From: Escherichia coli
Lineage (GTDB): Bacteria; Pseudomonadota; Gammaproteobacteria; Enterobacterales; Enterobacteriaceae
DNA: 64,000 bases
Strand: one strand, 5' to 3'
NCBI RefSeq assembly: GCF_048403405.1
Contig: NZ_CP183129.1
Position numbers: made by a program. Shown here piece after piece: positions 9,001-12,000 of this stretch; the stretch's first letter is position 1, and each line of letters opens with the position of its first letter.

Positions 9001-12000
9001 TGGGGCTGGCCCCTTCAAGCCAGAACCCTAAAACAGTCTGAACCTGTTCGATGCGACATTGCGCTTCAATGAGCTGGATGTTGGTCATTTCGCACTCTCC
9101 GCATCGATTAAACTGATATCTATCAGAGAGGTAACTTTTTGTAGCCAGCTAGTGATTACTGTCGCCTGTTCCCCTCCCACCGATGGAAGAATCTCATTCA
9201 TCACATGAACCAGACCTGTGCGCGCTCTGGTAAGCCGTTCAGTCGTGCGATCTGCAAGAGTGAATGTGTCTGGATATGGTTCTTCACGGCTCAGCAATGA
9301 TTCAATTTCCAGCTCACACGGATGACGATAAATTAAGTTGATATTCATTTTTCACCCCCAAGAATTACCAGCTCTGCACGGGCATCGTTAACCAAAGATG
9401 AGCACGCTTTAATCGCATCCACGACATCAGTAGCGTCCATTTCTTCAGCCGAAAGACTGACAGCAACCAGGACAGCCGCTGCTTGCTCGATTAATTGAAG
9501 TGCGGACGTAAGGCGAGGGGTATTAATTGAGTTATTCATTGGTTGCCCCCGTTTTTACTGGCATTTCGCCACCTTCCAGCAGGAAATGAACGTCACGAAC
9601 GGCGAGATCCAATATCGCGAGTAACGCCTTCAGTCTTTCGTCTCGTGAGGGAGAGTTGCTCACCAGAATGTCGTTAATCACTTCTGTCAGTGTGATGATC
9701 TGGCTTGTGCGTTCGAGGGGATCCATATGCACATCGTAGGTTTTAATCATGTGCCACCTCCATGCGGATACGACCAGCAAAAAAGCAGACGTGATCGCGC
9801 ACCAGAGAACGGCGAGCATCGCGTTCAGACTCGGCAGCAATATGATGAATTCTGGCGGTAATTGTCGGGCAATCGCGGCGAACTGCGGCGATAATCCAGA
9901 TAAATTGCGGTTTTTGGGTAGGGGTAGTAGCCAGCATGTGGCAGCCTCCATTCGATAGCATGTAACGCTACCACCGGAAACGCCAATTTCGCTGGTGGTA
10001 GCCCAGACAGGGTTGGCGTAACCGGCTCGAATGGATACCGGCGCTTCCGAAGAAGCCCCTGCCTGAGCCACCATTGATTGACAAAGGCGCTGGATTATAC
10101 ACCAACGCCCAAAAAATGGGTGAGTCAGACCTACGACATAAAAAAAGACGCTCGGCGCGTCATATGTCGCCATTCGATTTACCAGGACGCCAATCCCGGC
10201 ACCCGTTTTATGAGGTGCCTTATAACCATAAACCGTGTTGCCGCATAACGGCAAGCTCTTTTTTATGGACTCCGAAAACTCGCTATTGGAAGCACCAGAT
10301 GCACAGTACATCGCGCTCATTTCGTTAACGTCACGCGCGCGGATGAAGGTTTTTGTGGAGTCACTACGCGAGCGGAAGACATCATCTACGACCAGAAATT
10401 TTCTGGCGCAGCCGCTGACCTTCTCAATGCTAATATCATCGCCCGAGATTTCTGGTATGGTTAAGGCATCCGTTCCGACCACCAGCAAATGATAAACTTT
10501 GCTTGTATCTGCTGTATTAATGCCTGACTTTGCCGTCATATTGCTGGATTTTGGCGACATACCAGCCAGTGAAAATGTCTTCTTCTGGACGGGTATCATT
10601 GGTTAACCTCCGCGAACTCCTTCATGAAACGCGCCAGCGGTTGTACGCATGGCGATTGATACCCGTCGCGATAAAACGTCACTCGGTTGTGAGACACGCT
10701 TTCGACAGTAACGAGTGCTCCGTGGGCATCTTTGTAGCGTTTTTGTGGTTGTGGTGTTCCTGTTGGCTTAGACATTGAGCGCCTCCAGACGCTTGGCGAG
10801 CCAGCGTTGCGACAGGCGGGTGAGTTCTCCTTTGCGCTGCTCATATTCCATGCCCATATCAATTAACGTGATATTGGTGCTTTCGAGATATGAGAGGTGC
10901 TCAAGCTGTTCTGCGTTCATATGGTCGCGAGGTTCGCCAGAATAGCCATTTATCCGCGCCCACTGCTTAGCAGTTAGCCCACCAAGAACGATACGAGAAA
11001 TCATATTGCTCTCGTTTGTGTAGTGGTGTTGCTGCGTCATTTTCCCCATCTCGGCACGGGCCATATTCAGCGCATCGCACATTGGCTTAAAGTTGTTTGC
11101 GGCACTAATACGGGCTTTTAGCTGGCGACGATAGCGGGCGGCGATTTCAGGCACGGTACGCTGTAATTCTTCCTCGCACTGGATGAAATAACGGCGGATA
11201 GCGCGACCCTGATCATTGCGTTCGATCATTGCCAGTTCTTTCGCCATTCCGACACTTAACAGATAGTCTTTGCCGGGTCTGCCAGAGTGCTTTATCTTGC
11301 TGTAAGCCGCGCCATTCGGGCTTTTCCCCAAATTTGGGGAAATTGTTTTATGGACTGAGTAATCGTGCCCAATGGTGAAGTCATATTCAGAGATGCGATC
11401 AGTGATCCATGTAGAGAAGTCTTTTCCCACGCCCAACGCTTTGTGTAACGCTTTTGCGCTAACAATATTGGTTTCACGCCCACCGATATGACCAGGAATA
11501 ACCGGGACAATTGCGGCAAATTCATTACCGTTAATTGTGCCCAGAGAGGCGTTCAGATGAGGGGCGGCCTCAGAAATTAATCTGCTTTTTTCGATGTTCA
11601 TTTTCAGTCTCCGTTAGGCGGCGTTAAACGCGTTCGGGTAGAGTTTCAGAATGTCGGCAATTTCCTGCTGAGAAAGTCCGTTGTGATCATTTATGTTCGC
11701 AAGATGGTTAACATGAGTGATCACTTTCAGAACATCACCACGGCAGGAGAAACGGTAGCGAAGGTGTGTTCCGATACCATCAGGATTCTTTTCGTCGATA
11801 CGCTCCAGAGTGATTCCAAGCTGGCGTTCTAACTCTGTTGCATAGTTACGACCAGAAGACAGACGGCAGTAGCGAAGAATGTCATTTTCTGTCCATCCCT
11901 CTATACCAGTACGCAGCATATAGACTCTGGCACGATGCTTTTTCGGTGTGCGCTTTGGTGCTTGAAGGGATTTTGTCAGGGGCGTAACATCAGATACGCG

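Follow-up and report, generated by a model that had tools for sequence, protein, structure and literature searches.

A probable C4-type antisense-RNA immunity switch in an Escherichia coli satellite island, spanned by a long reading frame out of register with icd

We analyzed 64,000 nucleotides (nt) of the Escherichia coli contig NZ_CP183129.1 (assembly GCF_048403405.1), hereafter called the window, in which a frame of 355 codons on the minus strand runs across two small RNA genes and two small protein genes. We consider it probable, at about 0.78, that this region is a C4 (CI) antisense-RNA immunity switch of the P4/P1 type with a read-through frame that resembles P4 eta and is out of register with the icd gene inside it. 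The original prediction, made from the sequence alone, had described a 355-amino-acid (aa) frame with an ATGA start overlap and, within it, two similar Shine-Dalgarno (SD)–ATG contexts in different codon phases. Open reading frame (ORF) analysis confirmed this frame, whose ATG overlaps the TGA of a DUF4222 gene upstream as ATGA (10599–10596). The two internal contexts were confirmed as well, and their ATGs at 9937 and 9750 are 187 nt apart and therefore lie in different phases. In order, the frame reads isrK, C4, the icd leader, all of icd in the +1 frame, and then orf72 in frame. Because the isrK and C4 RNA genes, which the prediction had missed, occupy codons 128 to 203 on the same strand (Rfam), conservation is at the nucleotide rather than the protein level. 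Switches of this kind are already known; for the out-of-frame arrangement and the avoidance of stops described below, we found no description in the literature on P4 and phage-inducible chromosomal islands (PICIs).

The promoter, RNAs, targets, and genes of the module are listed in Table 1. Across 44 distinct homologues of C4, the three-helix fold was paired in 1188 of 1188 cells (100%), and 15 of the 27 pairs were compensatory. The promoter elements and their position upstream of isrK are kept in 29 distinct sequences including P4, where the conserved -10 coincides with the -10 annotated in the record. A generic promoter scan made no call at the isrK promoter because 8 of 12 consensus positions are matched there.

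We compared the region with a close set of ten aligned E. coli relatives and a wider set of 80 further IMG/VR loci. Four loop/target types were present among the ten relatives, and in each the C4 loop and the site immediately ahead of the icd SD had changed together in exact compensation: b' UCCAUUCGA with b2 UCGAAUGGA in the window, b' CCUUCAGA with b2 UCUGAAGG in loci L009 and L010, b' UCCUUGUAC with b2 GUACAAGGA in L011 and L012, and b' UCCUUGAUUG with b2 CAAUCAAGGA in L004 and L013. The a1 and b1 elements in isrK shift in parallel with these C4 types. When the IMG/VR loci were added, b'/a' combinations amounted to 32 distinct specificity types. Cognate loop and leader were complementary over 8 to 10 nt in 31 of the 32, against a mean of 4.7 nt for non-cognate combinations, and the target site in the leader ended 9 to 11 nt ahead of the ATG. 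A perfect 7-nt match of a', a2, and a1 was seen in about 10 types. The RNA switch appears to be active and is diversifying into many specificity types, and the many loop/target types among near-identical islands make up a ready-made system for the study of RNA-based immunity specificity among satellites. An additional a1-like site in the spacer between isrK and C4 (GUUGGUGUA), seen by eye, was dropped once a1 and b1 had been found in isrK itself.

The leader as a whole (9925–10218, minus strand) has a predicted folding energy of -132 kcal/mol (z = -5.6), which is unusually stable, and isrK a1 and b1 can pair in cis with C4 a' and b'. C4 may thus be sequestered by the nascent transcript before processing.

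Table 1. Coordinates of the features of the immunity module and its surroundings in the window
Feature	Coordinates	Strand	Sequence or detail	Evidence
Long frame, 355 codons (PGAP "ash family protein"), putative P4 eta analogue	10599→9532	minus	stop 9534–9532	ORF analysis
Small-terminase-like "DNA-packaging protein" pseudogene fragment	10336–10485	plus		tblastn, 70% identity to aa 87–125, E 5.6e-20, then stop
Internal promoter, P4 PLE equivalent	10225–10254	minus	-35 TTGCCG 10254–10249; 18-nt spacer; -10 TATGGT 10230–10225; start near 10218	conservation
isrK-like RNA (equivalent of P4 seqA, P1 a1/b1 region)	10141–10218	minus		Rfam RF01394, 67.1 bits vs gathering score 50
a1, in isrK	10193–10187	minus	UUGGCGU	complementarity to C4, parallel change
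b1, in isrK	10177–10170	minus	UCGAAUGG	complementarity to C4, parallel change
isrK terminator hairpin and U-run	10161–10140	minus		terminator scan
C4/CI-type antisense immunity RNA	9991–10078	minus		Rfam RF01695, 79.5 bits vs gathering score 45
b' loop of C4	10035–10027	minus	UCCAUUCGA
a' of C4	10019–10013	minus	ACGCCAA, single-stranded
icd leader with C4 targets a2 and b2	9938–9990	minus
a2, in icd leader	9986–9980	minus	UUGGCGU
b2, in icd leader	9955–9947	minus	UCGAAUGGA	overlaps icd SD GGAGG 9949–9945
icd/kil-family gene	9743–9937	minus	64 aa	NCBIfam NF033153, E 4.6e-20
Motif copy 1, icd ribosome-binding site	9951–9935	minus	ATGGAGGCTGCCACATG; ATG 9937
orf72, fuses in frame with long frame	9532–9750	minus	72 aa	family conservation
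Motif copy 2, orf72 ribosome-binding site	9763–9748	minus	ATGGAGGTGGCACATG; SD GGAGG 9761–9757, ATG 9750
int-alpA RNA	13349–13415	minus	directly downstream of integrase gene	Rfam, 60.6 bits

In the proposed quiescent state, the internal constitutive promoter (~10254–10225) would make the isrK-like RNA with a1 and b1, then the C4/CI RNA, and then the icd leader. The b' and a' segments of C4 would pair with b2 and a2 of the leader, with b2 covering the icd SD, and icd would then go untranslated by analogy with P4 and P1. Transcription would stop early, so that the downstream genes, from orf72 through the primase gene, would stay off as in those two systems. When the upstream operon is transcribed, ribosomes would instead enter the long frame through the ATGA coupling from the DUF4222 gene and pass through isrK, C4, the leader, and icd. 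What would matter, as in P4 eta, is the act of translation and not the peptide: termination would be prevented and the transcript would become insensitive to immunity. The sequence data themselves establish the RNAs, the covariation of loop and target, the coding nature of icd and orf72, and the evolutionary signature of a long frame that stays open. RNA processing, Rho-dependent termination, anti-termination by translation, and toxicity of Icd are carried over into this scheme from P4 and P1.

The P4 mechanism used here is taken from a secondary summary (Mageeney et al. 2023, PMC10111431). According to that summary, transcription from a constitutive promoter within eta ends soon through CI/seqA interactions, and the resulting transcript yields the CI RNA; Kil is a shortened form of Eta; translation of full Eta takes place only on transcripts from the upstream late promoter and is coupled to the alpA homologue; and Eta translation prevents termination. 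The region in the window resembles the P4 immunity region (PLE–seqA–cI–seqC–kil/eta) in the order of its parts, in having isrK/seqA and C4/CI RNAs, and in its promoter geometry. In both, the first gene is a Kil/Icd homologue, the next start (that of ε in P4) overlaps the kil/icd stop by 8 nt, and the long frame starts as ATGA on the upstream stop and spans both RNAs. The ATG of P4 eta overlaps the orf88 stop in this way, and the last 65 of its 199 codons are Kil. The two regions differ in register: eta and kil are a single frame in P4, with Kil forming the C-terminal 65 aa of Eta, whereas the frame in the window is +1 to icd and ends with orf72. They also differ in the distance from the C4 end to the ATG (54 nt in P4, 53 nt in the window), in the upstream partner (an alpA homologue in P4, a DUF4222 gene following AntA in the window), and in the b' loop (UCCUGUGAA in P4, UCCAUUCGA in the window). 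No ε (PF25738) homologue was found among the ORFs scanned between icd and the primase gene.

Both inner genes are real, with coding-type substitution patterns. The icd product is 40% identical to P4 Kil, which itself matches NF033153 at 1.4e-20, and variable sites in icd are spread 29/21/50 over the three codon positions of its own frame. In orf72, variable sites are distributed 47/31/59. The orf72 family (M[IL]KTYD…, 68 to 72 aa) always starts at the same ATG and is found free (L026) as well as fused to the long frame; orf72 matched no Pfam, NCBIfam, or PHROG family. The two genes overlap by the 8-nt ATGATTAA (9750–9743), and orf72 is predicted to be translationally coupled to icd. The suggestion that paralogous small genes had been fused by the ORF caller does not hold, as Icd and orf72 share no similarity. 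Of the possibilities raised originally, genuinely overlapping genes is the one that the data bear out, with coding-type substitution in icd and orf72 inside a containing frame that appears to be kept open by selection. Separately, locus L004 (2145–2549) has a 1-nt deletion in icd that joins the Icd N terminus to orf72, and in L079 icd is cut to 40 codons.

The apparent duplicated motif is two separate ribosome-binding sites and no repeat element. ATGGAGG occurs three times on the minus strand of the window, and among its six NNGGAGG-N5-8-ATG sites the motif pair is the most alike, at an edit distance of 2 outside the SD and ATG. The chance of such likeness is p≈0.002 for a single random pair and ~0.03 across 15 pairs; the resemblance is real, then, although it exceeds chance only modestly. 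Related loci have the two sites 3 to 9 edits apart, with the window lineage at the minimum. The near-identity of the two spacers is specific to that lineage, and in other lineages the sites are 4 to 9 edits apart. The leading "AT" of copy 1 lies in the hypervariable b2 segment and is "AA" in sister elements, and GGAGGCTGCC…ATG at the icd site is kept family-wide, P4 included. Copy 2 sits in the last icd codons (RMEVAHD*), is invariant across the four C4 specificity types, and does not covary with the C4 loop.

These observations bear on the idea that a single trans-acting factor targets both copies, for example C4 acting at two sites as it does at seqA and seqC in P4. Copy 1 does overlap b2, copy 2 of the window shares with it an AUGGA complementary to 5 nt of the C4 loop, and the pair is more alike than a random pair. 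However, copy 2 stays constant while loop and b2 pass through four types in near-identical elements, the second and third C4-complementary sites are a1 and b1 in isrK rather than a site at 9763, and the likeness of the spacers is not kept in other lineages. We therefore regard a common target as extremely improbable.

Next, we consider the long frame itself. Loci for this survey were picked by Icd similarity (70 to 98% identity), and 11 with a GTG icd start, a truncation, or a variant motif were skipped and not counted. From the isrK start to the icd ATG, exactly one frame was free of stops in 83 of the 84 loci, with 1 to 7 stops in each of the other two frames. The distances from isrK start to C4 start were 98, 101, 125, 128, 131, 140, 146, and 185 nt, all of them 2 mod 3; in the sole exception, L065, the distance was 139 and no frame was open across the RNAs. 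Insertions and deletions within the long frame were net multiples of three, and in one case this was the sum of a 1-nt deletion in the isrK U-run and a 38-nt deletion in the spacer. In 48 of the 60 distinct contexts, an upstream ORF of 40 codons or more had a stop that overlapped the start of the long frame.

In 30 loci, the long frame shared the register of icd (the P4 state); in the other 53, it was +1 to icd (the state of the window). The difference between the two registers is a single nucleotide in the SD–ATG spacer, which is 8 nt in one (e.g., CTGCCATC) and 7 nt in the other (e.g., CTGCCAC). The window lineage has GGAGGCTGCCATCATG against GGAGGCTGCCACATG in P4, a spacer shorter by 1 nt, and the P4-like counterpart of the window's CCACATG is CCATCATG. 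Owing to this shorter spacer, the eta-like frame is +1 to icd; in that register, icd is read wholly out of frame and orf72 is joined in frame, which gives the frame of 355 codons. The +1 frame through icd was stop-free in all 38 distinct genes whose long frame is out of frame, compared with 7 of the 26 whose long frame is in frame (p=7.5e-11), and the +2 frame was open in none of the 64. The contrast persisted when the genes were clustered at 95%, 90%, and 85% identity (Fisher p = 7e-6, 3e-4, and 0.007). Stops in the +1 frame of the in-frame genes lie at about 10 different positions, and these genes have out-of-frame neighbors that are up to 97% identical, which argues against simple inheritance. 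In the +1 loci, the frame usually continues into the next gene, which is orf72, a member of a 59-aa family or a 62-aa family, or a 291-aa recombinase, because the next start overlaps the icd stop by 8 or 11 nt.

The single-nucleotide difference could also mean decay, that is, an ancestral in-frame eta–kil that lost 1 nt and left the long frame as a neutral remnant. The shorter SD–ATG spacer is indeed the sole consistent difference from P4-type loci, and to this extent the suggestion of a frameshifted gene was right as history, since P4 eta and kil share one frame; it was not right in the sense of a decaying pseudogene. Out-of-frame loci outnumber the others (53 of 83) and are spread over at least 6 to 18 separate icd clusters, no premature stop was ever seen in them, and they are interleaved with close in-frame relatives that do carry +1 stops. 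Moreover, about 480 complete E. coli genomes have the arrangement over most of its length. Decay is thus very unlikely.

Somewhat less remote, though still unlikely, is that the 355-codon frame is an artefact of ORF calling in which conserved RNA genes are free of stops in one register by chance and no translation takes place. Several observations fit this idea: PF10554, the Phage_ASH family matched by the frame, coincides with the RNA genes; there is no codon-position bias in the N-terminal part or the cassette; and the N terminus is partly the reverse complement of a terminase fragment. In addition, the Prokaryotic Genome Annotation Pipeline (PGAP) gives two conflicting annotations to DNA that is 99% identical and always has the long frame intact: one is a 355-aa "ash family protein" in a single piece, and the other splits the stretch into a truncated ash pseudogene and an Icd-like gene. 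Both versions leave out the two RNAs and mostly omit orf72, which was annotated alone once (NCTC9040). An accident of this kind is at odds with a frame that stays open in 83 of 84 loci despite ~50% variable columns and with length changes that always preserve it, the paired 1-nt and 38-nt deletions included. It is likewise at odds with an icd +1 frame that lacks stops only in loci where it is part of the long frame and with a start coupled to an upstream stop in most loci. Reading the region as a C4-type switch with a spanning frame resolves this recurrent annotation conflict. A related naming is seen in in-frame lineages of the E. coli O55:H7/O157:H7 type (L005, 1276–2001; L006, 1417–1974), where PGAP calls the entire eta-like frame (185 to 241 aa) a "host cell division inhibitor Icd-like protein," which hides both RNA genes.

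If the frame is translated, it could be a conventional functional protein of the "Ash family," 355 aa long and under selection for its amino acid sequence, with the RNA matches secondary. The PF10554 match, at aa 124 to 232 (nt 10230–9904), reaches 105 bits against a gathering score of 26 (E 3e-30); PHROG families labeled transcriptional regulators match the frame; and the frame is intact in homologues down to ~88% nucleotide identity. However, variable sites in the ten relatives are divided evenly among the codon positions (N-terminal part, 21/15/17; C4, 16/12/16), and the third position is not enriched for them in the N-terminal part, RNA genes, spacer, or leader. By segment, variable columns made up 3% of icd, 4% of orf72, 27% of isrK, 52% of the isrK–C4 spacer, 50% of C4, and 53% of the icd leader. 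The C-terminal partner also varies by lineage (Kil in frame, orf72, the 59-aa family, or the 291-aa recombinase), and the conserved core follows RNA pairing perfectly. N-terminal parts of the frame are unrelated between lineages, and in the window the N-terminal 123 aa match no Pfam, NCBIfam, or PHROG family and include antisense terminase DNA, codons ~39 to 88 being the reverse complement of the terminase fragment in Table 1. A plus-strand ORF of 85 aa (10235–10492) was rejected as the remnant of a DNA-packaging gene, since BLASTP gave no match and tblastn places the fragment in a different plus-strand frame. The original prediction had named an uninterrupted ~355-aa protein conserved in homologues, lacking the internal SD motifs, as the finding that would speak against it; the long frame is uninterrupted in homologues, but it is not conserved as a protein and the SD sites are. 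A conventional Ash protein thus seems quite improbable.

The survey argues that selection preserves the translation of the frame and not its amino acid sequence, in line with the role reported for P4 eta. A more specific proposal is that the eta-like frame was shifted by the 1-nt spacer change, is selected only for being translated (anti-termination or anti-immunity), stays stop-free through icd, and is fused to the following gene; we offer this tentatively, at somewhat short of even odds. If it is true, a constraint to avoid stops is imposed on a real gene in another frame, and the region would be a clean case of a frame that is selected for translation rather than for its product and that overlaps a real gene out of frame. 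The 1-nt difference might also act as a toggle that separates read-through from production of a toxic Kil/Icd domain. In-frame loci would make an Eta–Kil fusion from the transcripts that begin at the upstream operon and correspond to the P4 late transcripts, and in out-of-frame loci ribosomes would pass over the icd start in the wrong frame. Nonsense mutations in P4 eta reportedly led to premature termination in work by Forti in 1999, and our comparative data amount to a natural replicate of that result. To our knowledge, neither such a constrained read-through frame nor a 1-nt toggle has been described.

Several points weigh against a translated read-through frame. The surveyed loci are phylogenetically non-independent, and the openness of the frame is partly inherited with the conserved RNA sequence. 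The isrK terminator lies within the frame and would shorten some of the upstream transcripts. Finally, the scheme only deduces that the long frame is translated, that C4 is processed, and that there is a Rho-dependent terminator.

These results also bear on PF10554. The matched stretch of the frame, aa 124 to 232, consists of isrK, the spacer, C4, the leader, and the first icd codons, and on P4 eta the family matches residues 37 to 161, which are isrK, C4, and the start of kil. P4 ε matches PF25738 and not PF10554, and PF25738 has no match in the 355-aa frame, icd, or orf72. In the P4 record (X02534; our locus L014), the stretches concerned are 1240–1839 for eta, whose RNA-bearing middle matches PF10554, and 1832–2119 for ε, which matches PF25738; Rfam places the C4/CI RNA inside the "putative ash gene (aa 1–137)" of that record and isrK/seqA just upstream of it. 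PF10554 is therefore a misleading family: it represents the isrK and C4 RNA genes of P4 eta read as protein, and not P4 ε. In the literature, PF10554 has served as an ε marker for finding P4-like satellites, with "Ash" equated with ε (PMC8628076). A conserved "Ash family protein" has been noted in PICIs, and Phage_ASH has been treated as a protein domain (PMC11773190, PMC10111431). The Rfam C4 and isrK models have been reported to match PICIs, inside "Bro-network" genes (PMC10111431).

Other known systems share parts of this arrangement. The immI region of P1 and P7 consists of the c4 antisense RNA, icd, and ant1/ant2, with a1/b1 and a2/b2 target repeats (Rfam RF01695, RF03163). Like it, the region in the window has an antisense RNA with two recognition elements complementary to a site at the icd ribosome-binding site and to an upstream copy, an Icd-family first gene, and specificity set through coordinated changes in RNA and target. 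P1-like plasmids also match the isrK part. Unlike P1, which controls an antirepressor downstream, the window has an AntA-family gene upstream, and its downstream genes lead to a primase. In Salmonella Gifsy-1, isrK is followed by orf45 and anrP (Rfam RF01394), and an isrK-family RNA with a terminator of its own forms the 5' end of a longer mRNA through which downstream prophage genes are controlled. The window resembles it in this respect but differs in that its isrK precedes C4 and icd and is the putative a1/b1 partner of C4. With the Gram-negative PICIs (EcCIMP1 and HE-PICIs), the window shares the layout of int, alpA, antirepressor/"Ash," and primase (PMC11773190, PMC10111431).

We take the region to be the module for immunity and early control in a satellite island of the P4-like/PICI-like kind. 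Upstream of the module are a tyrosine integrase, the int-alpA RNA, AlpA, AntA, and the DUF4222 gene, and downstream is a Zn-ribbon/Toprim/DUF927 primase. The region is found over most of its length in ~480 complete E. coli genomes, and its core (10235–9876) in ~3100 records. A JUMPstart element (24197–24235, plus strand; Rfam, 55 bits) presumably heads a polysaccharide or similar operon outside the island. An 87-aa satellite ORF (9085–9348, minus strand) has copies in L003 (3053–3316) and L004 (2733–2996), some of which PGAP names "nicotinic acetylcholine receptor subunit beta," evidently a spurious, propagated name. Finally, a near-identical AntA–DUF4222–ash–orf module is present on a "plasmid" record, L013 (NZ_CP148430.1), which is circular and 12,152 bp long as a whole; this 12-kb circle may be an excised or plasmid form of the satellite.

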